In this document: piece after piece, positions 16,927-59,410 of the stretch | How positions within the stretch are numbered: the stretch's first letter is position 1 | Layout: the number at the start of each line of letters is the position of its first letter | DNA from: Candidatus Marinacidobacterales bacterium | GTDB taxonomy: Bacteria; Acidobacteriota; Vicinamibacteria; Marinacidobacterales; DATDRI01 | Length of the DNA stretch: 64,000 bases | Assembly (NCBI GenBank): GCA_965219415.1 | Contig: CBDCNP010000002.1 | Span: 5,536,001 to 5,600,000 of the forward strand | Direction: 5' to 3' | The notes under the pieces: generated by a model | The model's input: only the letters and a program-made list of their open reading frames with translations | The model's database searches: none | Told to the model about the DNA's origin: nothing | Made by a program: the position numbers and the translations under genes

Positions 16927-18480
16927 TTAAAGCGTTGCGATGAGGGCGCGCTGTTTCTCCCAATCGTCGGGGAGTGGATGATGCAAGAGGTAGCTCGAGG
17001 TCAGCCCAACGGGCTGGCGGCCGTCGACAATGGTGCGGACGATGTCGGGCGCCAGAAAGGCATAACGGATTGCCTTGCGCACGCGGGCCTTTGGGATGGC
17101 GTCTTCGGTGGCAATCTCCTCATAGGTTTTGCCCGCTTTGATTCGGTCGAGCCAGGAGAGGGCATTGGCGATATTGCGCAGGAGGGTGCGGTCAACGGAT
17201 TTCGTGGGGTTGCCCAGAACGAGCTTGGTCTCGACGCCGCGTCGACGCAAGCGGAACGGCGCGTGGATGCGGAGTGCGTCCTCGCGAATGCGATCTGGCT
17301 CCATAGACAGGCAAGCAGCGAACGCATCTCGGTCGAGCAGGATGGACACAGAGCCGGGGCTGATATCGACCCGCCGGATGAAACGGAGCAGGCTGGCTGC
17401 CAAGGCACTATCATCATCATCATCACTATTGCTACCTGGACACAGCCCGTCTAGAACGTGACGCACCGAGGCGAGTTCCTGTATCGTCGGAGTGTGGATC
17501 AGCGAGGCCGAGAAGGTCGGTGCCCCCACATGCTGTTGGACGAGATGTACGACGGTCCGTTCCAGCGTGGGTGCGGGCAGACGCCAACCGGAGAGGTCCT
17601 TGTTGCCACTGTGCTGGATGAGGCGCCGGGAGACGTAGTACCGGAACCGTTGCCCGCTCTTCTTTTTCGTATGGCTCGGCGTCAGCCGGTCCCTGGTCTC
17701 ATCGAAGAGCTTGCCGGCGAGAGGGGAGGGAGCTGCAAGGCCCTTGGTCGTGCGTTTCCTCGGTTTGGTAGCCCCTGTCTGCAGCTGCGTCTGGACCGCG
17801 CTCCAGAGCTCGGGAGCGATGATCGGTGGATGCTGGCCCGGGTAGACACGCCTCTGGTGCCGGATGCGGCCGGCGTAGAGCGGATTGGTCAGCAGGCAGT
17901 GGAGGTGCCCGCGGCGGAACGGTAGACCGCCTGTCCGCGTTCCATCAGCGGCAAGCCGTTGCTTGGTTCGCAGTCCCAGACGATCCGCTTCGGCCTTCAC
18001 CTGCCGGAGCGTTCCGTGCTTTCGGTACAGCGCATAGAGAGTCTGGACCGTTTCGGCCTCAGCCTCGTTGATGCGCAGCGTGCGCCCGTCCTGCTCGTAG
18101 CCGAGCGGTACATGGCCGCCCATCCATAGTCCCTTGCGCTTGGAGGCAGCAACCTTATCGCGGATCCGCTCAGCCGTTCGACGAGCTTCGCAAAGTCGGA
18201 GAGGGAACGGGTCAGCCGGTCGACCTTGTAGACCACCACCTGCTCGACGAGACCGGCATCGATGTCGGCGAGCAAGCGCTGCAGGCCCGGGCGCTCCAGG
18301 GTTCCTCCCGAGATCCCCGCGTCCTCGTAGACAGTTGGCAGCAGCACCCAGTCCTCTGCCTTGTGGCTCGCGACATATGCGGTGCAGGCCTCCCGCTGTG
18401 CATCGAGGGGAGTTGAAATCCTGTTCGAGACCCTCTTCAGCGCTCTTTCGGGTATAGATGGCGCAGCAGATTTTCGTCAT
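16927..18480 (-). pseudogene. Large serine recombinase, frameshifted and internally deleted
   Basis: CAIYTRKS, DAGISGGTLERPGLQRL, VVVYKVDRLTRS in shifting frames; FVSVTQ-type segment missing; recombinase domain downstream. Confidence 0.85.
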
Positions 18481-18481
18481 G

Positions 18482-18913
18482 TCAGGCCTTGCGCTTGGGC
18501 GTCAGACCGAAAAAGCGTGGTCCTGACCAGTGTGTGCCGGTGATTCGCTTTGTGATGGTGGTGAGGGACGGGTAGGTTTTGCCGTCGAACCGATAGCCGT
18601 TATCGAGTACCTCGACCTGGTAGGTGCGGCCATTCCACTCGCGGACGAGATGGGTGCCGGGAGAAACGGACCCTGCGGAAGGGGCGGGGCTTGGTGTGCC
18701 GTTCGCCATGGCGGCCAGGGTGCGCCGGGTTGCGGCCGAATGCCCGCCATAGGTCCGGCACTGGCGTTCGTACGCAAGAACACGGCGCAGGAGAGCGCGT
18801 GAGAGCGAGCTTGGCGGAGCAGCCCCGAAGGTCTGCTCCCAGGCCCGCCGCAGGCTAGGGAGGTTCAAACCGTCCAGAACGACCCTCCGGCCAACTCTTG
18901 TATCCTTCGGCAT
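18482..18913 (-). CDS. DUF2924 domain protein
   Basis: PGTHLVREWNG...YPSLTTITKRITGTHWSGPRFFGL; usual partner upstream of the recombinase. Confidence 0.9.
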   Translation of the reverse strand: MPKDTRVGRRVVLDGLNLPSLRRAWEQTFGAAPPSSLSRALLRRVLAYERQCRTYGGHSAATRRTLAAMANGTPSPAPSAGSVSPGTHLVREWNGRTYQVEVLDNGYRFDGKTYPSLTTITKRITGTHWSGPRFFGLTPKRKA

Positions 18914-18979
18914 CACCGAACGTTCGCTCTTTCGCCAGGTAAAGTCCAGTCCAATGGGGACTTCCGGGGTGCGCAGGTC

Positions 18980-19184
18980 GCTGCCTGCAGCTCGCCCCAC
19001 AGCCGATTTGAGCCAGCCGTGCGCACCACCCCCGGTGGGCCTGTCGCCCGCCACCCGCAGCCCAGGGGTCGGAAGCCAGCCCTGCGGCTCGAAATACCCC
19101 GGATTCTTCGCGGATTCCAAGGGCGTCTAAGCTGCTGATTTGTGGTCTATTTCAAAAGGGCCGAGTTTTGGCACAGGACGGGGG
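18980..19184 (-). repeat. A-type terminus plus ~150-bp subterminal segment
   Basis: Inverted homologue at 22009-22210; part also at ~6580-6640 upstream of the 5597-6568 transposase. Confidence 0.8.
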
Positions 19185-19621: not shown

Positions 19622-20395
19622 CTATCCTGCTTGTGACGACAGCAGCCTCAGGGGAGCGGGATCGCATTTCACATCTCGCGTCGCGACGATCGGTCCTTGG
19701 CGACTCCATCCATTTAGTTCGATGACGATCGTGCGCCCACTCGGGTTGCTGGGACGGAGCTTCCTGGAAAGAAGGCCTCCGAAACGACCATCGTGCGTAG
19801 ACACAAAGAGCTGCCTCCGATCCTTGGTGCGCCGGAGGAGATCGACCAATCCTAGCAAATGGATGTCATCGAAGCTCTGCAACGGATCATCCAGTATCGC
19901 GGCCGACAGTGGTAACTTCGGGACTCCGATGTTCAGCGTAAGAAAGACTGAGACTGCAAGAGCATTCATTTGCGAACTGGATAAGACAGCCGCAGGAAAG
20001 TCGCACTCTTTCTCCGCAAGCGGATCTTTTACGACAGTGTGCAGCTCCCCTTTGCCTCTAACAACTTGAGAGAGTAACGTGACGAAACCAAACGACGGGT
20101 GCGGGTCGATCCTCGCGTAGATGCTTTGGAGCAATGGGCCGATTTCGCCAAGCCGCTCCTTCACGACTGCTGACGCTGCCTCGCGCAATGCCTCGATGAT
20201 ATTCTGCGCGCGCTCTCCCGTCTGATCTCGAGCTGAGATAAACTTCTCGCAGTCGGCCTTCTCGCGCCTGAGCGTCTCCGCCTCGATTCGGATTAGGAGT
20301 GTCTACGCTTGGTTGGCAATAGGAGCTATCGCAGAGCCAGTGCCGCGTCGGCTGGTCTCTGCAAATTTCGAGAACGCCTCCAGGATTCGAGCTTT
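19622..20395 (-). pseudogene. C-terminal fragment of a Rad50/SMC-type ABC ATPase
   Basis: LSSSQ signature, ILDDPLQSFD Walker B/D-loop, VSTHD H-loop; no Walker A half. Confidence 0.8.
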
Positions 20396-22397: not shown

Positions 22398-22640
22398 TCA
22401 AGCAGCGCGTCGAGTGTAATGATAATGGAGACCACCGACCTTTGGAATGGCACTCACTTTGCCCATTGCTGGCGACTCTACGCGGCGAGGCTCGGGCGCG
22501 TCCTTCTCAAGCGACAAATGAGTCCGGCACGAATGATAGTAGTCGACGTATTTGCGTAGGATTCGCCTCAGGTGCTGCTCGTCGAGGACGATCACATGGT
22601 CAAGACACTCACGTCGAATGGAGCCGATCATCCTTTCGAC
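22398..22640 (-). pseudogene. C-terminal fragment of an integrase-core transposase
   Basis: [14 protein letters not shown]...GGLHYHYTRRAA; downstream flank repeated at ~8115-8180. Confidence 0.8.
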
Positions 22641-22727
22641 TAATGGATTCTGTCACGGGGAGCGCGGTGCGGTAAGGACTGCTCGTCGTGCCGAAGCGTC
22701 GGGAAGGACGGCTTGCTGTCGGAGGAA

Positions 22728-23154
22728 CTAGCCCTTCACGCAGACGGTCTGCTTGAGCCGGTGGACGATCCCTTACGAGGTCGCTCTGTGCCTCCATCAC
22801 GGCGTCGATGTCCTTATAGGCTCCGGGAGTCTCGTCGAGAACCCTCACGTCCTTGCGGCACTCGACCCCGGCTGTCGCCGCGGCGTGATCGTCTAGAGTG
22901 AAGCGCTTCTTGGCTTCGTTGCGGGACATGACGCGCCCGGCACCGTGACTGCACGACTCGAAGCTCTCACGGTTTCCTTTCCCCCGGACGATATAGGAGC
23001 GCGCCCCCATGCTTCCGGGAATGATGCCCAGGTCGCCCCGCCCAGCCCGCACCCTTCCGCGTGACGAAAACCTCCGACCCGTAGTGCTGCTCCTTCGCGA
23101 CGTAGTTGTGGTGACAATTGACGACTTCTTTCTTGGGTCGAAACGCGGGCACGA
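22728..23154 (-). pseudogene. rtcB: RtcB RNA ligase, C-terminal fragment
   Basis: NCHHNYV, IPGSMG, SCSHGAGR, DETPGAYK motifs across frameshifts. Confidence 0.9.
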
Positions 23155-23155
23155 A

Positions 23156-23638
23156 GGATCGCCCACGAGCTGCTCGTCAAGCTTGGCGTCCGCGTCTCGC
23201 CGCGCACCGTTCGGAAGTACATACCCATTCGAGATGATGGCAGCCCGGACCGGCGCAATGCGTCGCATCGCTGGGCGACATTCGTGCGGAATCACGCAAA
23301 AGCGGTCGTCGCTGCGTATTTTTTTAACGTAGTCACCGTCAGCTTTCGCGTGCTTTAGGTCTTCGTCATCATGGAAATCGGCACCCGCAAGATGCTTCAC
23401 TTCAACGTGACGGCGCATCCGACCGCGGAGTGGACGCTGCAACAGTTCCGGGAGGCGATTGGGTGCGAGCACGACTATCGATTCGTCATCGTGGACCGCG
23501 ATGACAAGTTCTCAGCAGACCTCCGCCGCTCCGTCCGGGGGAGGGTGTTCGGCCGTTGAGGACGCCGCGCAGAGCACCGCAGGCAAATGCCTATTGTGAG
23601 AGACTCATCGGCACCACACGCCGGGAGTGCTTGGATCA
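23156..23638 (+). pseudogene. Internal fragment of an integrase-core transposase
   Basis: RIAHELLVKLG, WATFVRNHA, HFNVTAHPTAEWTLQQFRE, VDRD; contains stops and frameshifts. Confidence 0.75.
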
Positions 23639-24692: not shown

Positions 24693-25951
24693 TGAAGTGA
24701 CCCCGCTTTCGTGGACAGGTTAAGAGTTAGGGATCAAGCGTCGCGATAGTACCTCCTTTCGAATTGGATAGGCGAGCAATAGTCGATGGCGGAGTGTCGT
24801 CGTCGCGGGTTGTACCAGCCTTCGATGAAATCGAAGGTCGCCATGCGCGCCTCAGCGTGGTAGCGAAACGACCGGCGCTCGATCAGCTCGCACTCGAGCG
24901 TCGCGAAGAAGCTCTCGCACATCGCATTGTCGTAACAGTCCCCGACCGAACCCATCGACGGTCGCACCCCGGCCTCCCGGCATCGCTGGCCGAACGCTAG
25001 TGACGTGTACTGCGTGCCCTGGTCCGAGTGATGGATGACGTCGCCGGGCTTGCGTTGGAACAGCGCCATGTCGAGGGCGCTCAAGACGAGCGACGTCCGC
25101 AGGTGGGTAGCCATTGCCCATCCGACGATGCGTCGGCTGAAGGCGTCCAGCACGACGGCGAGGAACAAGAAGCCCGACCACGTGGGCACGTAGGTGATAT
25201 CGGCGACCCACAGGCGGTCGGGCCGGTCCACCTCGAAATTCCTGTCGACGAGATCGGGGGCGGGACGGGCGTCGTCACAGCGAATCGTAGTGTGCGCCCT
25301 CTTGCGCCGGTGAACACCTTGAATGCCAGCCTCGCGCATCAGCCGCGCTACACGCTTGCGTGAAGACGTGGAGCTCGTGTGTCTCTCGTAGCTCGTGGAG
25401 GATCCTCGGCGCGCCGTACGTGCTCCGCGACGCGGTGTGAATCGCCCGGATCTTCTCAAGCAACTCCGCATCCGACACCGCGCGGGCCGACGGGGCACGC
25501 TCAAGCCACGCATAGTAGCCGCTGGCGGAGACGTCCAGCAGTCGGCACATCGTGGCAACCGGTAGTGAATCCTGGTTCGCCCTCACGAATCGGAAGGCTT
25601 CGGTGGTACCGACTCGGTCTCCCGAGCGAACCAGGCCGCGGCTTTTGAGAGGATCTCCCGCTCCAACCGTAGTTGACGGTTCTCCCGTCGCAGGCGGCGG
25701 AGCTCCGCACGCTCCTCACTCGTCAGACCGTCCTGCCTGCGACCCTCGTCGAGATCCGCCTGGTTCACCCAGTTCCGGATCGTCTGGCCCGAGGGCTCAA
25801 ACTCTCGCGCCAGCTCTTCGGAGCCGCGGCCCGCTCGCACCAGCTCTACCATTTGGCGCCGGAACTCGGCCGCGTATCTGTTTCCCTGCTTTGACATCGT
25901 GGACTCCTGTCTCCCAAAGGATTAGGTGTCCACGAAAGCGGGTCAAGTCCA
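24693..25951 (-). mobile_element. IS3-family element (orfA 25583-25897; orfB 24734-25586 frameshifted), lying within an A-type terminus
   Basis: TG...CA IRs containing CCCGCTTTCGTGGACA; WVADITY, HSDQGTQY, DNAMCESFF; both flanks are parts of an A-type end with a small deletion. Confidence 0.9.
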
Positions 25952-27132: not shown

Positions 27133-27425
27133 GTTATTTATCCGTGCGCCCCGAACTTGATTGGTCTCCGGTCTGCCGGCACCATGCCGGCATGATTTCG
27201 TCGTTGGTTCCCGCTCGCCTGACGGTCCTAGCTTCTCGCGGGGAACAACGCCTTCTTTCTCCAGCACGTTATTGCGTCGGTGGCCCTGCAGCGACAGAGT
27301 GCAGAACCTCCACCGAGGCGAACACGAGTTCGCAGGAACTCCCTCACATGGCCCCGTCAATACGCGATCTTCTTTTTTCCGTGTCACAACCTCTCAACCG
27401 GCAAGTGTTTCTCCACCGGTCGACC

Positions 27426-27583
27426 TGTGCCTTCTATTTATTCATCCGCGCGCACCGAACTTGATTTATCTCCGGTCTGCCAGCACCATGCCGACATAAT
27501 TTCGTCGTTGGTTCCCGCTCTCATCTCTGCCTTCAAGGCTCGTCGTGAGCTGGCTCTCGAGAATGTCGCTCTTCGGCAGCAAA
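27426..27583 (+). repeat. 'D-type' left end (TGTGCCTTCTATTTATTCATCCGCGCG) with first codons of an integrase-core transposase
   Basis: Followed by ISSLVPALISAFKARRELALENVALRQQ; other D ends near 27133, 30979, 33786, 38474, 49861, 59234. Confidence 0.8.
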
Positions 27584-27645: not shown

Positions 27646-30093
27646 GTGGCCGAGAAACTCCACTCAGACGTGCTCGAACGCCTCCAGCAGGATGTCGTCC
27701 TGTCCGAGACGGCAAGAGAGCTCGTGCTCGCGGCGCTCCTCGGCGAGGTCGAGGTATGCCTCGGCGGCAAAACGCCGGCCGCGCCCGCCACCGAATCCGC
27801 TGAACCGGAAGATCCCGCTCGCGCGTACATCGACGCCGTGCGCGTTCAAGGTTTTCGCGGTATCGGACCGAGCGCTGAGCTTGCTCTCTCCCCTGGTCCA
27901 GGGCTGACGCTGGTCGTCGGACGCAACGGCTCGGGCAAATCGAGCTTCGCGGAGGCGCTCGAGCTCCTCCTTACCGGCGACAATCAGAGATGGAGCTCCA
28001 AGCGCAGTAGGGTCTGGAAGGACGGCTGGCGCAATCTCCATGAACCCGACGTAACGAAGATCGAGGCAACGCTTCTCATTGACGGCCAGGCGGGCCCCTA
28101 CGTCGCGTCACGGCAATGGAGTGCGAACGACACGCTCGAGGCTGGCGAGGCCACGATCACCCACGCCCATAAGAAAAAGACCGGTCCCCTCTCTCAGCTC
28201 GGTTGGGCAACACCGCTCGCCACTTACCGTCCTTTTCTTTCCTATAACGAGCTCGGCTCCATGCTCGAAGAGGGCCCCTCAAAGCTCTTCGATGCCCTCG
28301 CCTCGATTCTCGGGCTCGAAGAGCTCGTTGCCGCCGCCGACGCGCTCAAAGAAGCGCGCGGTTCACGAAGCAAGATCCACAAGAAGGCCAAGGACAAACT
28401 CAAAGAGCTCCGCGCCTCGCTCAAGGCGCATCCCGATGAGCGGGCGGCAAAATGCCTCGAGGCCACCAAGGGCACGAAATGGAACCTCGATGCCGTCGAA
28501 GGCCTCGTCGCGGGCGGTGCGGTCTCTGAGACAGACTCGACTGTCGCGCGGCTTCGGGAGCTCACCCAGCTTCAGGGGCCGAATCCCGAGCGCGTCTCCG
28601 AGATCGTCGCCCAGCTCCGGCAGGCGGTCCGGGATCGACAGAGTATCGCTGGAACGGATGCCGACAAAGCCCGCCGACGAGCCGAGATTCTGGACAAAGC
28701 CCTCGAGCTCCACCGCCACGACGGAGACGGCGACTGCCCCGTCTGTGGACGCTCCTCGGCACTCAACGAGGTTTGGCACTGCCAGGCCGAGGCGGAAGCC
28801 CAGGCGCTCAGAAAAGAGGCTGCCGCTGCCGAGAAAGCGCACCGCGCGCTTCGTGACGCGGAGCGGGTCGCGCAGGCGGCGGCGACACCCCTGCCTCCCT
28901 CCTTATTGATGGCCAGCGAGCTCGGCGTCGACGCCGACGCCGTCCAGCTCGCCTGGAGCGGGTGGCACCAGGCGTCGAGCTCGACGGGCGAGGAGCTCGC
29001 CAACCACCTCGAAACGCAAGCTCCCGAGCTCAATCTAGCCCTTGAGCTCTTCCGCGAGCAGGCGCAACAAAAGCTCGCCAAGCGCGAAGACCAGTGGAGA
29101 CCGATGGCCCTCTCCCTCGCCGAATGGCTTCCCGCTGCCCGCCAGATGCAGTCCGAAACCGAAACCGTCAAGCACCTGAAGGCCGCGGAAGACTGGGTCC
29201 GGACCACTACCACCGCCATCCGCAATGAGCGCTTCCAGCCCATCAAAGAGAAGGTCAAAGGTATTTGGGAGCTTTTGAGAACCCGCAGCAGCGTCGAGCT
29301 CGAAGACGTTACCTTCGAAGGCAAGGCGACGTCCCGCAAAGTGAGCCTCGACGTGACCGTCGACGGCACCGAAGGCGCCGCCCTCGGCGTCATGAGCCAG
29401 GGCGAGCTTCATTCGCTCGCGCTCGCTTTGTTTCTCCCCAGAGCGACCCTTGAGGCGAGCCCGTTCCGATTCCTCGTCATCGACGACCCGGTTCAGTCCA
29501 TGGACCCCGCTCGCGTCGACGGCCTCGCCAAAGTCCTAGGCGAGGTGGCCTTCGATCGCCAGGTCGTCGTCTTCACCCACGACGACCGCCTGCCCGATGC
29601 CGTGCGGCGCCTCGAGGTCCCCGCCACGATCGTCGAGGTCTTGCGACGAGAAGGCTCACTCGTCGAGCTCCGCAAGGTGCAAAGTCCCATGCGTCAGTAC
29701 CTGGATGACGCCTTCTCCCTCGTGAGCACCAAGGACCTGCCCAAGATCGCGCGCGAGCGCGTCGTCCCGAGCCTGTGCCGACATAGCCTCGAGGCCGCTT
29801 GTCTCGACGTCGTGCGTCGCCGTCGTCTCACGCGAGGCGACTCGCACGAATCCGTCGAGGAACTCTTCGACACCCACACGAAGCTCGTCCCGCGCCTGGC
29901 CCTCGCGCTTTTCGATGACGCGGAAAAGGCCAGCGGCGTCTACAACGGCATTAAGAACCGTTTCGGTCCGTGGCAGATCGACACCGTCAAGCTCTGCAAC
30001 GAGGGCGCCCACAAGGGCTTTCCCGGAGGCGACGCGCTTAGCTTCGTGCGCAACGTGGACAAGCTCGCAGGCAAGCTCGTGAAACTCGCATGA
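27646..30093 (+). CDS. Rad50/SMC-like (RloC-like) ABC ATPase with zinc hook and C-terminal HEPN-like domain
   Basis: GFRG, GRNGSGKSS Walker A, coiled coils around CPVC, MSQGE, VIDDPVQSMD, FTHD; helical tail with LCRHSLE and CNEGAH. Confidence 0.85.
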   Translation: MAEKLHSDVLERLQQDVVLSETARELVLAALLGEVEVCLGGKTPAAPATESAEPEDPARAYIDAVRVQGFRGIGPSAELALSPGPGLTLVVGRNGSGKSSFAEALELLLTGDNQRWSSKRSRVWKDGWRNLHEPDVTKIEATLLIDGQAGPYVASRQWSANDTLEAGEATITHAHKKKTGPLSQLGWATPLATYRPFLSYNELGSMLEEGPSKLFDALASILGLEELVAAADALKEARGSRSKIHKKAKDKLKELRASLKAHPDERAAKCLEATKGTKWNLDAVEGLVAGGAVSETDSTVARLRELTQLQGPNPERVSEIVAQLRQAVRDRQSIAGTDADKARRRAEILDKALELHRHDGDGDCPVCGRSSALNEVWHCQAEAEAQALRKEAAAAEKAHRALRDAERVAQAAATPLPPSLLMASELGVDADAVQLAWSGWHQASSSTGEELANHLETQAPELNLALELFREQAQQKLAKREDQWRPMALSLAEWLPAARQMQSETETVKHLKAAEDWVRTTTTAIRNERFQPIKEKVKGIWELLRTRSSVELEDVTFEGKATSRKVSLDVTVDGTEGAALGVMSQGELHSLALALFLPRATLEASPFRFLVIDDPVQSMDPARVDGLAKVLGEVAFDRQVVVFTHDDRLPDAVRRLEVPATIVEVLRREGSLVELRKVQSPMRQYLDDAFSLVSTKDLPKIARERVVPSLCRHSLEAACLDVVRRRRLTRGDSHESVEELFDTHTKLVPRLALALFDDAEKASGVYNGIKNRFGPWQIDTVKLCNEGAHKGFPGGDALSFVRNVDKLAGKLVKLA

Positions 30094-30476
30094 TCGCCGT
30101 CACCGACTACACCCCCGAGGACCTCCTCGACGCCGCCAAAGGTCTACTTTCGCGGCCCGACGCCAACGCGAAGGGAATCTGGCCTCGTGCCGCCGCCCAT
30201 CTCTGCCGCCAGGCCCTCGAAGCCTCACTGGCGCAGTGGTGGACGAAGCGACTTCCCGGCATGGAGACCACCTCCATGCGCGCCCAGCTCGTGTGTCTTC
30301 CGACCTATCTCACGACGGACGGACTCGCCGGTCAGGTTGCCTACACCTGGTCCGGGCTGAGCAACGCGTGCCATCACCACGTCTACGAGCTGGCGCCGAG
30401 CGCCACCGAGCTAGCCGCGTGGCTGGACATTGCGACGGAGCTCGCCCATGCCGTCAAGATGTCAGAACGAGACTAG
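30090..30476 (+). CDS. Small HEPN-like protein, translationally coupled to the ATPase
   Basis: ATGA overlap; LLDAAKGLL, AAHLCRQALE, LSNACHH pattern. Confidence 0.7.
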   Translation: MIAVTDYTPEDLLDAAKGLLSRPDANAKGIWPRAAAHLCRQALEASLAQWWTKRLPGMETTSMRAQLVCLPTYLTTDGLAGQVAYTWSGLSNACHHHVYELAPSATELAAWLDIATELAHAVKMSERD

Positions 30477-31024
30477 AGCGTTCTGGTATCGCCATCGGAA
30501 GAGAACAATCTCGACACGACGGCGTTGACGAAAGCTGACACAAAATTCGAGAGCAGACGCGAGAGCGAACCTTTCCACGTTTACAATGACGTCGGATCAC
30601 CTCATCCGTTCGTCGCGAAACGGGCAATCCTGGCGGGTCTAAACCGCGGAATCAACAACGGGTCGAATTTTTGCGGAGCACACCCCTGACTGCGGAGGCT
30701 GCGGGCAAGGGCAAGCGCGGACCCCGAACAAGAAGGGCTCGCCTTGACCGAGGATTCTAGCTTCCATTGCCAACCAAGCCTAGGCGCCTCTAATCCGCAA
30801 CGGCGCGCAGGTCATGAGTTCGTTTGTGTTTTTGGACACGACGGGCACAGCTAGCTCACGACGAGCCTTGAAGGCAGAGATGAGAGCGCGAACCAAATGA
30901 CGAAATCATGCCGGCATGGTGTCGGCAGACCGGAGACTAATCAAGTTCGGGGCGTGCGGATGAACAAATAGAAGGCACAGTCCTAATTTAGGAATGGGGA
31001 ATCTAGCAAACTAGCCAATAGCTA

Positions 31025-33710
31025 CCCCGTCCTGTGCCAAAACTCAGCCCTTTTGAAATAGGCCATAAATCAGCAGCTTAGTGTCTGTGTTTGCGACCGT
31101 GCCAAGGGCCGTGGGCTTTACAATCGTCTGGCCCGAGGGTGTTATCTTCAGACCCATGATGACCTACCACGTGCAATTCCTACTGCTCGTTCTGGCTGGG
31201 TCAACCGCCAGCAGCAGGATGTGATCGACTACCAGCAAGAGGAGAACCGTGTGCTCCGAGCCGGGCTTCGGGGCAAGCGTCTCAGGCTCTCGGACGACGA
31301 CCGGCGCAGGCTCGCCGTCAAGGCCCAAGCTTTAGGCCGCGAGGCGCTGGCCCAGATTGCGTCGGTTGCCACACCCGCTACGCTCCTGCGCTGGTACCGC
31401 TGCCTCATCGCAGCCAAGTATGATGGCAGCAAGAACCGGAGCCCAGGCCGACCTCCGACGGCGAAGGACATCCGTGAGCTCATTGTGCGCGTGGCGCAGG
31501 AGAACCCGACGTGGGGATATACGCGCCTGCGGGGTGCACTCAAGAACCTCGGACATGAACTCGGACGCAACACCATCAAGAGGCTCCTCGCCGAGCACGG
31601 TATCGCGCCGGCTCCGGAGCGGGGCAAGAGCATGTTCGTGGAGCACTTTCCTCAAGGCTCATTGGGGCGCTATCGCTGCGACAGACCTGTTCACCGTCGA
31701 GGTGGTGAACCCGTTCGGGCTCGTCCGCTACCATCTCCTGTTTGTCATCGATATCGCCACTCGCTGCGTGTGCATCGGTGGGATGACCTCGGACCCAAAC
31801 GGGGAGTGGATGAAGCAGGCGGCAAGAAACCTCACGGACATGTGGGATGGTTTCCTCCTTGGCAAGCGGTACCTCATCCACGACCGGGACCCGCTATTCA
31901 CCGAGGCGGTACGTGGGCTTGATCCAGTTTCGTGGACACTTTCTGAAAAGGCGGATACGATGTCCACAATGGCAAAGACAACGCAGCCCCGGCGACCCCG
32001 CCGGGAGTTTGATGACGAGTTTAAGGCAGGCGCGGTCCGGCTGGTGCTTGATGAGGGCCAGAGCGTGGGTCGGGTGGCCCGGGAGCTTGACCTCACCGAA
32101 TCGGCGTTTCGCAACTGGGTCCGTCAGGCCCGGGCCGATCGGACGAAGGGCCGGACGGGCTTGACGGGCGTGGAACGCGAGGAGCTTCGGCGGCTCCGCA
32201 AAGAGAATCGGCGGTTGCGGGTGGAGCGCGACGTTTTAAAAAAAGCCGCGGCCTTCTTCGCGAAGGAGAGCGAGTAAGATTCGCGTTCATCCAGGCGGAG
32301 AAGGCCACCGTACCGGTCGTTCACCTGTGTCAGATTCTCAACGTCTCTCGGAGTGGCTTTTATGCCTGGGTACGTCGGCCGCCGTCGGCCCACGCGCGCC
32401 GGGACCGCCAGTTGCGCGTGTTGATTCGTGCCTCCCATGAGGCGAGTCGCCGCACCTATGGGAGTCCGCGGATTTATCACGACCTGCACGAGCAGGGGTA
32501 TCGAGTGAGTCGGGAAGCGGGTGATTCGGTTGAAACAGGCAGAAGGCCTCATTGCTCGAGTACGCAAACGCTTCAAGCGCACGACGGTAAGCGGTCATGG
32601 CCAGCCCGTCGCGGCCAATGTGCTCGGGCAAGACTTCGTCGCCGATGCGCCGAACCAACGGTGGGTCGGGGACACGACCGAGTTCGTGATCGGCAGCGGC
32701 GGGAAGCTTTATCTCGCGGCGCTCCTCGACCTCTACTCGCGATTCCTCGTTGGGTGGGCCGTAAGTGCTATTAACGACCGTCACCTGGTTATCAAGGCGT
32801 TGCGGATGGCACTGAAACGTCGCCAACCGGCCGCGGGGCTCTTGCATCACTCCGATCAGGGCAGTCCGTATGCCAGCAAAGACTACCAACGTCTCCTTGA
32901 GACGCATGGCATGACCGGGAGCATGAGCCGACGGGGCAACTGCTACGACAACGCCGTCATCGAGAGCTGGTTCTCCACGGTCAAGCACGAGCTTGGGGAG
33001 CATTTCCTCAGTTGCGGCGAGGCCAAGATGGCCCTCTTCGACTTCATCGAGGTATTCTACAACCAGAGACGACGACACTCGACCCTCGGCCAGGTCAGTC
33101 CGGCCGAGTTTGAACGACGGATGAGGACTTCGCCAGCTTAACTAAACCGTCTACGAAACCGGATCAAGCCCAACGTGGGCTCTTGAGAGATTCAGGTGTG
33201 AAGCCCCTCCGCCTTCCAGCGAACAGTCCGAATCTGAACGCATACGCGGAAAGATTCGTTCTCTCCATACGTCGAGAGTGTCTCGACCGCTTCGTACCTC
33301 TCAGTGAGCGACACCTGCGCACAGCGGTAACCGAATACGTAGTGCACTATCACACAGAACGGAACCACCAAGGTCTCGGCAACGAGCTCCTCACTCCTCT
33401 GCCGGCAAGCGCGAATAGCGCTGGCCCCATCGTGTCGCGAGAGCGACTTGGGGGCATTCTCAACTACTACTGCCGTGCCGCGTAGATTGTGGCCGGGACG
33501 GTAGCCCCTCGGTGGGCCCGCTCGGCGTAGCGTGAAAACAGCTTCAGGAACACGCTTGGATATTCGCTCTCGACTAGGTGGTCATCTGCATGGTGACGAC
33601 CCGTCCAAAGGGTAGCTCTGCTCAATGGTTGTCGCGGGCCTCACCGCCCACGCCGCGTCAACTGTTCGCTTGTAACGTTGCATGTGGATCAAATTTTGGC
33701 ACAGGACGGG
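31025..33710 (+). mobile_element. Second A-type integrase-core element, frameshifted and interrupted by IS3
   Basis: A end at 31025; transposase 31157-33485 near-identical to 14370-15440; right end shares only the terminal ~18 bp. Confidence 0.88.
31914..33172 (+). mobile_element. IS3-family element, apparently intact (orfA 31960-32277, orfB to 33141)
   Basis: Same IRs as 15658-16916; 3-bp TSD ACG. Confidence 0.94.
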
Positions 33711-33933
33711 ATCATGCAGGCACGGTGCCGGTAGATCGGAGACTAATCAAAGTTCGGGGCGCGCGGATGAATAAATAGAAGGTACACCCAAGCCACCCTT
33801 GACGAGGTCCTTCGTTTTGTGGTCTTTTCCTTCATGGCGGTGTTTCCTTCTGTAGGCTCCTTCAGGCCGTGTTCGACAACGCGGAAGGTTACTCCACCTT
33901 TACTCTATTTCTACACCTTCTGAGGGTAGCTCT

Positions 33934-38323: not shown

Positions 38324-38814
38324 AAATAGATCATAAATCCAGTAGCTTAGTGTCTGTGTTTGCGGACGTGCCAAAGGCTGAGCGCGAACAAACGACGAAA
38401 CCATGCAGGCATGGTCCCGGCAGACCGGAGACCGATCAAGTTCTGGGCGCGCGGATGAATAAATAGAAGGCACAGGCCAGAATCGAGGCCGGAGTGACCA
38501 CGAAATATAGCAGGCTAACACGTTCTGGTCTAGGTGTACCTGGACACCCTTGATGTCCTTACTTTTCTAGGATTGGGCCTCAACCTGGGTCCCGACCTCC
38601 TGCGGCTCTTCCCCGGCACACAGCACACGCTGAATCTGAGTCTTTCAACCAACGGTCACGATGCTCCCGCGCTGGCCGCCGCGTGGGGTCACTCTGGCGT
38701 GCCTTTTGCCCGCCCAATGCGGTCACCATGATCCCATGTCCCCAACTTCAAAGTGCTACAATTCTTGTCGGCAGGTCAATCGTGCCGACGGCACCAGCTG
38801 GCCCTCGCAACGTA

Positions 38815-59093: not shown

Positions 59094-59410
59094 ACCGTCA
59101 TTATAGGAACGTTTTCCGGCCGCCATTGTAAAAAAGAGCTACAGATGGATAACTCTTTGCAAAGTCTACGGTTTGACACCGGCGTCCGCAGCCAACGATG
59201 CGGATGGTGGAACCACGATGTTGGCGAGCTACTTGTGCCTTCTATTTATTTATCCGCGCGCACCAAACTTGATTAATCTCCGGTCTGCCAGCACCATGCT
59301 GCCTTGGTGGGTGCTTCCGCCATCAAGTGATGGAATGGACTCCTCCACTGACATAGACGGCATCGATGTGCCAAAGTCAGTCGAATACGCATCGAAAAGG
59401 AGGAGTCCGA

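Follow-up and report, generated by a model that had tools for sequence, protein, structure and literature searches.

A conserved and unnamed two-gene module of the ABC-ATPase-plus-HEPN kind in a Marinacidobacterales genome

The stretch of DNA analysed here, hereafter the window, comprises 64,000 nucleotides from Candidatus Marinacidobacterales bacterium (Acidobacteriota; assembly GCA_965219415.1, contig CBDCNP010000002.1, positions 5,536,001 to 5,600,000 of the forward strand) and carries two coupled genes: gene A, for a Rad50/SbcC-like coiled-coil ATPase of the ATP-binding cassette (ABC) type with a predicted HEPN-fold domain at its C-terminus (the tail), and gene B, for a small stand-alone protein, also of predicted HEPN fold (Table 1). 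The pair is a real, conserved and unnamed two-gene module of the ABC-ATPase-plus-HEPN kind. The integrity of both genes, their motifs and folds, a weak paralogy between the tail and B, the conserved coupling of the two genes, a predicted heterodimer, and a patchy and mobile distribution were all computed in this work. The reading that we prefer, to which we give a probability of about one half, is that the pair is an RloC-like abortive-defence module, in which the ribonuclease (RNase) would be a heterodimer of the fused and the free HEPN domain.

Gene A and its coupled partner

Both reading frames are intact, as had been stated by the first-pass annotation, which was made from the letters of the DNA alone, and the ATG of B overlaps the TGA of A as ATGA (30090-30093; read from the sequence). 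Every motif listed in that annotation was recovered and is conserved in homologues, i.e., Walker A, CPVC, the ABC signature, Walker B and FTHD in the ATPase, YLDDAF, CRHSLEA and CNEGAH in the tail, and LLDA, RQALE and ACHHH in B. Across 44 full-length homologues of A, residues G92 to S100, C364, P365, C367, S584 to E587, D613, D614 and H645 are invariant. The ATPase matches several Pfam families above their cut-offs (SMC_N with an expectation value (E) of 8.4e-15, AAA_23 with 6.3e-13, AAA_21 with 6.2e-12, and AAA_15), and its nearest solved sequences are those of Rad50 (E 5.9e-6) and SMC heads. Residues 347-370, around the CPVC motif, are matched by the Pfam family Rad50_zn_hook at a sub-threshold level (E 0.0042, 17.3 bits, with a cut-off of 24.3).

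Table 1. Location of the two genes, their motifs and the surrounding repeats, in window coordinates
Feature	Coordinates	Strand	Basis or remarks
Gene A, Rad50/SbcC-like coiled-coil ABC ATPase with a predicted C-terminal HEPN-fold domain, RloC-like architecture	27646..30093	+	Open reading frame, GTG start, 815 residues
Walker A (P-loop) GRNGSGKSS, A residues 92-100	27919..27945	+	All nine residues invariant in 44/44 homologues
Helical insert that splits the ATPase head of A, about residues 214-555, presumed antiparallel coiled coil	28285..29310	+	LmuB profile over residues 214-654 and position between N- and C-lobe motifs
CPVC zinc-hook motif, A residues 364-367, near the middle of the insert	28735..28746	+	C364, P365 and C367 invariant in 44/44
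ABC signature SQGE, A residues 584-587	29395..29406	+	Invariant in 44/44 homologues
Walker B FLVIDD (residues 609-614) and D-loop PVQSMDP	29470..29508	+	D613, D614, P615, V616, Q617, M619, D620 and P621 invariant
H-loop FTHD, A residues 643-646	29572..29583	+	T644, H645 and D646 invariant
Predicted HEPN-fold domain (tail) of A, residues 681-815	29686..30090	+	R712-x3-E716 at 29779-29793; H789 in CNEGAH at 29995-30012
Gene B, 128-residue stand-alone protein of predicted HEPN fold	30090..30476	+	Open reading frame; R40-x3-E44 at 30207-30221, H95-H97 at 30372-30380
Repeat of about 131 nucleotides, left copy	27425..27555	+	Inverted partner at 30849-30980; context, outside the machine proper
Repeat of about 131 nucleotides, right inverted copy	30849..30980	-	Inverted-repeat search, blastn
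3.0-kb block shared with two other metagenome-assembled genomes of the same order, with unrelated flanks	27654..30663	+	blastn, about 98% identity

Among the defence profiles of PADLOC, the best for A are LmuB (PDLC03859, E 1.9e-23, residues 214-654), mad3 (1.3e-22) and PDC-S06 (1.1e-15). In NCBIfam every match to A falls far under its cut-off, with MAD3 at 19.4 bits versus 420 and the Rad50 models at no more than 34 bits versus at least 700. The family PF13166 (AAA_13) reaches 22.1 bits on A versus a cut-off of 36, over P-loop positions 20-58 only, and a scan of the genome with it gave no match reaching A; about half of the A homologues listed carry a precomputed PF13166 match. These homologues number more than 2452, are mostly of about 815 residues, and bear anonymous automatic names ('AAA family ATPase' or of the 'RecF' type). 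The genome studied here has a single copy of the module, as judged by A.

The association between the two genes was surveyed in 80 loci, which were fetched via A from contigs at one genome per species, out of more than 586 found. A homologue of B is present in 74 of these loci, and in 73 of the 74 it lies directly downstream of A, within 160 nucleotides; 71 of these share the same -1 frame, from which an overlap of stop and start follows. The six loci without B (L004, L006, L022, L034, L044 and L074) are fragments, contig ends or decayed copies. In the reverse check, that started from B in a sample of 401 genomes of the phylum, A was found upstream in 13/13 full matches, and one partial B match adjoins a fragment of A; some of these genomes are shared with the 80-locus set. 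The expectation that the pair is conserved as a pair was borne out by both surveys. No third conserved gene was detected, the best flank cluster being present in 8/80 loci, all of them close relatives; likewise, neither the flank clusters of the 80 loci nor a Pfam scan of 114 flanking open reading frames revealed a gene for Mre11/SbcD, LmuA, LmuC, MADS components or a nucleotidyltransferase conserved beside the pair.

Some loci show other arrangements. The lone exception among the 74 loci with B is L055 (5432-8913, from an Acidimicrobiaceae metagenome-assembled genome), where B is located divergently upstream; its A protein has 996 residues and a HEPN-like tail without the conserved His, behind which lies a nucleotide cyclase domain of class III (Guanylate_cyc, E 2.7e-6). 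Locus L074 (3948-8999) is decayed: a frameshift affects the tail of A, and of B no more than the C-terminal end can be recognised. Genes for an N6/N4 DNA methylase and a ResIII/SNF2-type helicase come immediately after the pair and make for a restriction-like neighbourhood. Homologues of A without a tail, of about 660-680 residues and with forms of about 668 among them, are also found in Terriglobia and other Acidobacteriota (P0033-P0041, P0048 and P0062), and P0033 stops exactly at residue 681, the boundary between head and tail. The idea that these forms represent a split system was not accepted: L022, the sole tail-less locus that was read (3-1676), is a truncation: its gene A ends within the first few residues of the tail, and the genes behind it are VapBC-like and unrelated.

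The tail of A was modelled with AlphaFold2, from the family alignment, as an all-helical domain with two extra helices and a mean predicted local distance difference test score (pLDDT) of 93.7. In a VIA-align structure search against about 48,000 PDB representatives, its top eight matches (Z 9.0-7.3), the same entries that lead for B, are seven titled as HEPN proteins or as the PaREP1 HEPN protein, together with 3mfn, a protein of unknown function. The HEPN assignment of the tail, made from the model, is of moderate strength. Residues D688, A689, R712, H734, E738, D757 and D758 are invariant in the 44 full-length homologues, and E716 and H789 are conserved in at least 90% of them; in a set of 64 tail sequences, numbered from the start of the tail, R32, E36, D8 and A9 are present in 64/64 and H109 in 58/64. 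The tail has no match in Pfam (searched with the single sequence and with the 64 members, 0/64), NCBIfam, PADLOC (up to E 10) or the sequences of the PDB. In the ESM Atlas it falls among unnamed clusters, the nearest lead, and only a lead, being a cluster of 150 residues at 0.88 with PF13166 in 13% of its members. A search for free-standing tails returned mostly fragments at contig ends and two possible free tails, P0362 (134 residues) and P0368 (121 residues).

The model of B, obtained in the same way, is also all-helical (pLDDT 89.7). Its top VIA-align matches are 2hsb (Z 14.3, root-mean-square deviation 2.3 over 113 residues), 3mfn (13.1), 2jpu (11.8) and the HEPN domain of sacsin (11.7), followed by 1wol, 1ufb, 1wwp and 4nqf, so that the first eight rows are mostly HEPN entries; Csm6, HEPN-MNT toxins, AbiA, LsoA, Las1 and RnlA appear lower. 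HEPN entries also rank first in Foldseek, weakly (E 0.04-0.3). For B, the HEPN assignment from the model is good. Among 63 homologues, E44 and E107 are conserved in 63/63, H95 in 62/63, Y99 in 60/63 and R40 in 57/63. No family was found for B in Pfam, NCBIfam, PADLOC (up to E 10) or the sequences of the PDB, and PF05168 is touched by only 1/63 sequences (E 0.073). The 89 close homologues of B are all labelled 'hypothetical', and a profile search of 1.84 billion representatives gave 1358 clusters at E <= 0.001, the best 150 of which are all free-standing proteins of 100-229 residues. The ESM Atlas again offers unnamed clusters, with the HEPN domain of RnlA/LsoA as the nearest named one (0.81), only as a lead. 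The models therefore agree with the first-pass suggestion that both domains are HEPN-like by fold. Set against the HEPN superfamily as a whole, the four-helix up-and-down fold is present, more weakly in the tail, the Rx4-6H motif is absent from this copy, and neither domain falls in a curated sequence family.

Candidate catalytic residues and the predicted tail-B complex

When the profiles of the tail and of B were compared with hhalign, they aligned end to end over 108 columns (probability 52.9%, E 1.4e-4), with the R-x3-E motif and the His in register; pairwise BLASTP gave an E of 0.006. On these sequence comparisons, we have moderate confidence that the tail and B are diverged paralogues. 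In both of them the R-x3-E motif is invariant or nearly so and is located on helix 2 (R712/E716 in A, R40/E44 in B). Passages of the study of GkaRloC (Davidov & Kaufmann 2008, PMC2610378) define the RloC family by Arg-X3-Glu-X36-52-His, and give R320/E324/H356 of PrrC and R692/E696/H737 of GkaRloC as residues each essential for anticodon nuclease activity. The R-x3-E of the tail stands at almost the same positions as in RloC (R712/E716/H789 versus R692/E696/H737), but its H789 comes 72 residues after E716, outside the x36-52 range; the triad of B, R40-x3-E44-x50-H95, falls inside it. An R-x3-E...H pattern like that of the PrrC/RloC nuclease domain is recognised by sequence in both domains, a feature that the first-pass annotation had missed.

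The same annotation had described both domains as lacking the canonical Arg of the Rx4-6H motif. This is correct for the two domains of this copy and for the tail family, in which the residue five positions before H789 is C in 33 sequences, V in 18, L in 6, A in 6 and S in 1, and never R; it does not hold for the family of B, where position 92, an Asn in this copy, is an Arg in 39/63 relatives and, given that H97 is present in 50/63, forms an R-x4-H motif (R92...H97). Passages of the HEPN survey (PMC3710099) describe families in which the His is kept and the Arg is lost or relocated, such as PaREP1 (2q00) and AF0298 (2hsb); these two are the top structural matches for the tail and B. In the same passages the label 'inactive' is kept for HEPN domains in which no charged or polar residue is conserved, and it is noted that domains lacking the motif can serve in binding.

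A complex between the tail and B was predicted with a score of 0.75 (0.73, 0.75 and 0.77 in the individual runs), versus 0.13 for the best of three controls; the mark used for this score is reached by 116 of 157 solved complexes and by 2 of 215 mismatched pairs. The runs have at least 87% of their contacts in common, with a partner pLDDT of at least 83. The predicted interface is pseudo-symmetric, formed by helices 1-2 of each chain and residues 94-96 of B, and contains the invariant D688 of A and the near-invariant R33, A34, L38 and H95 of B. This controlled prediction supports the binding of the tail to B, and gives weight to the heterodimer that had been proposed in the first pass.

From these elements, a working scheme for the RloC-like reading can be outlined. 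By analogy with Rad50, SbcC, RloC and LmuB of Lamassu, A would dimerise through its zinc hook and its heads, and would bind or sense DNA in an ATP-dependent manner. The tail of A would pair with B through helices 1-2, as in the model, and translational coupling would ensure that B is made in stoichiometric amounts. The resulting heterodimer would be the effector, most likely a metal-independent RNase in which the R-x3-E...H residues of both chains replace two canonical Rx4-6H motifs. This RNase would be switched on, released by the ATPase cycle, upon the appearance of foreign or damaged DNA; tRNA or another RNA would be cut, and the infected cell would stop growing. The sensing of DNA, the chemistry, the target and the defence phenotype are what we infer in this scheme, and the RNase activity and the recognition of DNA ends that the first-pass annotation had put forward belong to the same inferred part.

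A broader proposal, which we hold only tentatively and consider rather less than evenly likely, is that the pair represents an unnamed and widespread defence family (more than 2400 ATPase clusters, more than 1300 partner clusters, at least four phyla), whose RNase site is built across two HEPN paralogues, one fused and one free, both using R-x3-E...His in place of the canonical Arg, and is switched by a DNA-reading zinc-hook ATPase. Were this so, the pair would stand for a heteromeric HEPN nuclease architecture of a new type, intermediate in evolution between RloC with its single chain and SMC-type systems of several subunits, such as Lamassu. If the RloC-like reading is right, the catalogues greatly understate how common RloC-type immunity, with DNA damage as input and tRNA cleavage as output, is in soil and marine Acidobacteriota, Actinomycetota (Streptomyces, Nocardia and Actinoplanes among them), Gemmatimonadota and Chloroflexota; such genes carry no other label there than 'AAA family ATPase' and 'hypothetical protein'. 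With its obligatory partner, a free HEPN paralogue, the module would offer a handle on two questions about HEPN enzymes, how dimer geometry gates activity and whether an active site can do without the arginine of Rx4-6H. Being small (3 kb) and self-contained, and occurring on Streptomyces plasmids, the pair lends itself to direct tests in laboratory strains.

Several observations weigh against the RloC-like reading. With regard to the folds, the Z values of the tail do not exceed 9.0, which is within the warning range of the tool and possibly reflects a common helical arrangement, and its Foldseek matches are weak (best E 0.26). The probability of paralogy between the tail and B is only 53% by hhalign. 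With regard to the complex, the conservation of the predicted interface is 0.61 versus 0.55 elsewhere in the tail, with 1782 of 10000 random subsets as high, and 0.62 versus 0.50 elsewhere in B, with 594 of 10000 as high, neither being significant; in addition, HEPN dimers exist in the PDB, so the complex score may partly reflect memory. With regard to the chemistry, the canonical HEPN Arg is missing from the tail in 64/64 sequences and from this copy of B, so that the domains could be non-catalytic, and the gap between Glu and His in the tail, x72, is beyond the RloC range of x36-52. With regard to defence, no match to the pair was found among 50,697 phage records, and the neighbours are ordinary metabolic genes in about 12 of the 19 loci scanned with Pfam (114 of 327 selected open reading frames, in 19 of the 47 loci with long flanks); pointing the other way, about 7 of the 19 have restriction, GmrSD, HNH, helicase-nuclease or ADP-ribose-processing neighbours, and this gene content is suggestive of an association with defence islands.

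Alternative readings and relation to known systems

The structural prediction is also compatible with an arrangement in which the tail homodimer is the nuclease, joined when the heads engage, and B is a weakened HEPN decoy, an antitoxin that caps the tail until a trigger displaces or degrades it. An A dimer would carry two tails, and the predicted interface involves helices 1-2 of both chains. The divergence of B is faster than that of the tail (39% versus 54% mean identity per column), as is often seen in antitoxins, the gene order and the ATGA coupling resemble those of toxin-antitoxin operons, and B is also lost from the tail-less or decayed copies. Nevertheless, B retains polar residues of catalytic appearance (E44, H95, R40, E107 and Y99) that would be superfluous in a mere cap, 39/63 of its homologues even have R-x4-H, and its gene is located downstream and not upstream of the presumed toxin. 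On balance, we consider a toxin with its decoy unlikely.

Slightly less likely still, in our judgement, is a role without RNA cleavage, in which both HEPN folds would bind nucleic acid or nucleotide, as in MtlR and the nucleotidyltransferase HEPN domains, and the module would act on DNA, in end tethering, repair or the maintenance of mobile elements. The loss of Rx4-6H from all 64 tails and the binding role that the survey passages (PMC3710099) allow to motif-less HEPN domains are in line with it, as are the Rad50 and SMC heads that are the nearest solved ATPases, the Gene Ontology term 'double-strand break repair' that the annotation pipeline PGAP gives to the plasmid copies, the many loci with non-defence neighbours, and the variant L055 with its cyclase domain fused after the tail. 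However, R, E and H vary hardly or not at all in either chain, in contrast with domains called 'inactive' in those passages; there is no conserved Mre11/SbcD-like or other partner; and the distribution is patchy and mobile.

It is very improbable that the pair belongs to a named system, i.e., Lamassu (through LmuB), MADS (through MAD3), the PADLOC candidate PDC-S06 or a bona fide RloC, since, despite the profile ranking of A and the precomputed PF13166 match in about half of its listed homologues, the LmuB, mad3 and PDC-S06 matches are confined to the ATPase, the tail and B match nothing in PADLOC, no LmuA, LmuC, MADS or third gene is conserved, the PF13166 and MAD3 scores lie below their cut-offs, and the RefSeq names of the pair are generic. 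Membership in Lamassu, MADS and PDC-S06 was accordingly rejected, and the absence of partner genes likewise sets the pair apart from HEPN-MNT and SbcCD. The view of the first-pass annotation that the system is unnamed stands, given that no named family covers the tail or B. No paper was found that names the A+B pair; the 2023 release of PADLOC-DB was used, so a recent naming is possible.

Of the systems compared, RloC is alike in its length of about 800 residues, in an ABC head split by a coiled coil that carries a CxxC hook, in its C-terminal HEPN-type domain and in an R-x3-E...His at nearly the same positions; moreover, passages on GkaRloC (Davidov & Kaufmann 2008, PMC2610378) describe a frequent GTG start and an accessory gene that is seldom linked to restriction-modification. 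The differences, RloC being compared by its description only, are that RloC works as one gene, with no counterpart to the free HEPN paralogue that is coupled to A in 73/74 loci with B, that the tail has its longer Glu-His spacing, and that the PF13166 score lies below the cut-off and the tail has no sequence family. In other words, of the features that define RloC and PrrC, the ABC motifs and the CxxC hook, the latter a mark of RloC only, are found here, whereas the PF13166 cut-off is not reached and a dedicated small partner accompanies the large protein. PrrC likewise joins an ABC ATPase to a HEPN nuclease domain bearing the R-x3-E...H triad, and is silent until a phage cue; unlike A, it has no coiled coil or zinc hook, and it sits in a type I restriction-modification operon that is its silencer, neither feature being conserved here.

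With Lamassu, the module shares LmuB, the best defence-profile match to the ATPase and coiled coil of A, and the same presumed logic that goes from the sensing of DNA ends to an effector; however, Lamassu needs the effector LmuA and LmuC, whereas here the effector domain is fused and the small partner has a predicted HEPN fold without a match to the LmuC profile. AF0298 (2hsb) and PaREP1 (2q00/2jpu), of the HEPN-T clade, come out best in the structure searches with B (Z 14.3 and 11.8) and with the tail (Z 9.0 and 7.3), but these are stand-alone proteins of archaea whose partners differ (MNT, restriction endonuclease), with an identity of 7-12% and no match at the profile level. HEPN-MNT systems (e.g. 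7ae2, 5yep and 8xdj) also have a small HEPN fold, a translationally coupled two-gene operon and a HEPN dimer; in contrast, there is no nucleotidyltransferase here, and the partner is an ATPase of 815 residues that itself bears a HEPN domain. Rad50-Mre11 and SbcCD contain the closest solved ATPase heads by sequence and a CxxC hook in the coiled coil, but the module has no Mre11/SbcD gene, a much shorter coiled coil (about 340 residues), an additional HEPN tail and a patchy occurrence.

Distribution, mobility and neighbouring genes

B was detected in 15 of the 401 sampled genomes of the phylum (14/370 of the high-quality ones), with presence and absence within single genera, and the 80 loci belong to Acidobacteriota, Actinomycetota, Gemmatimonadota and Chloroflexota. 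Given this rarity, the lack of a conserved nuclease partner and the mobile contexts, the pair is not a housekeeping repair system, and its accessory character fits the RloC-like reading. The pair is also present on two Streptomyces plasmids, one copy being that of NZ_CP101138, beside NB-ARC/TPR and large ATPase or helicase genes, where RefSeq labels it as 'AAA family ATPase' and 'hypothetical protein'. The 3.0-kb block of Table 1 is shared with loci L001 (98.5% identity, 27654-30663) and L002 (98.2%, 27654-30638), and outside it only short repeats match. Truncated copies of A are found elsewhere in those metagenome-assembled genomes, at L003 (residues 465-815 plus B), L004 (444-756) and L006 (1-253). 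As far as can be read from sequence, the nearly identical block and the truncated copies suggest recent movement and decay of the module.

In the window, the pair is bracketed by the inverted repeats of about 131 nucleotides, and the earlier remark that it survives intact between two ends was confirmed. A blastn search detected six further copies or part-copies in the window; the family, of about 85-131 nucleotides and in both orientations, includes 27134-27216, 27425-27555, 30849-30980, 33700-33786, 38380-38475 and 59234-59299. In one DNA run the summed word depth of the repeat is about 7,600 versus about 8 for the gene, which indicates a very high-copy element in this community, similar to a miniature inverted-repeat transposable element or to the end of an insertion sequence. 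Other mobile elements near the pair are an IS3 element (24734-25897), an IS256-type transposase, a serine recombinase and an ISL3 fragment. An IS481-like gene (31221-33485; HTH_21/HTH_32 at 31221-31919 and the rve_3 end at 33183-33485) is split by an IS3-like insert with HTH_Tnp_1 and rve, at about 31950-33141, that is flanked by inverted repeats at 31914-31942 and 33144-33172.

Regarding expression, a promoter and terminator scan gave no promoter-like site and no terminator on the + strand. Contigs of three metatranscriptome runs, which belong to two studies, match parts of A with an identity of about 97-99% and at low depth; this is at most a weak hint of expression, since contigs cannot show transcription and carry-over of DNA is possible, and the lack of cover over parts of B is uninformative.

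In several Actinomycetota loci, e.g. L021 (8833-11451) and one of the Streptomyces plasmids (L082; 1-1995 and 6386-9943), the pair lies beside large STAND-like proteins (Guanylate_cyc with AAA_22 and TPR; NB-ARC with TPR) and an AAA ATPase or helicase of about 1185 residues. These STAND-like and helicase surroundings may be a larger defence island.

On the other side of the IS3 element, 4 kb from the pair, an open reading frame at 22609-23472 (- strand) contains only the C-terminal quarter of an RtcB RNA ligase (profile positions 316-413 of 426) and is probably a gene fragment. Ligases of the RtcB type can reseal RNA cuts of the HEPN type; a link of this fragment to the pair is unsupported. 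Further away, a large serine recombinase is encoded at 16927-18480 (- strand), next to a DUF2924 protein at 18482-19120 (- strand). An open reading frame of 187 residues at 19622-20188 (- strand) has a weak, sub-threshold match with PF13166, in the C-terminal portion of that profile (positions 531-583, E 4.4e-4), and may be the remnant of another gene of the PrrC/RloC type carried on an integrated element.

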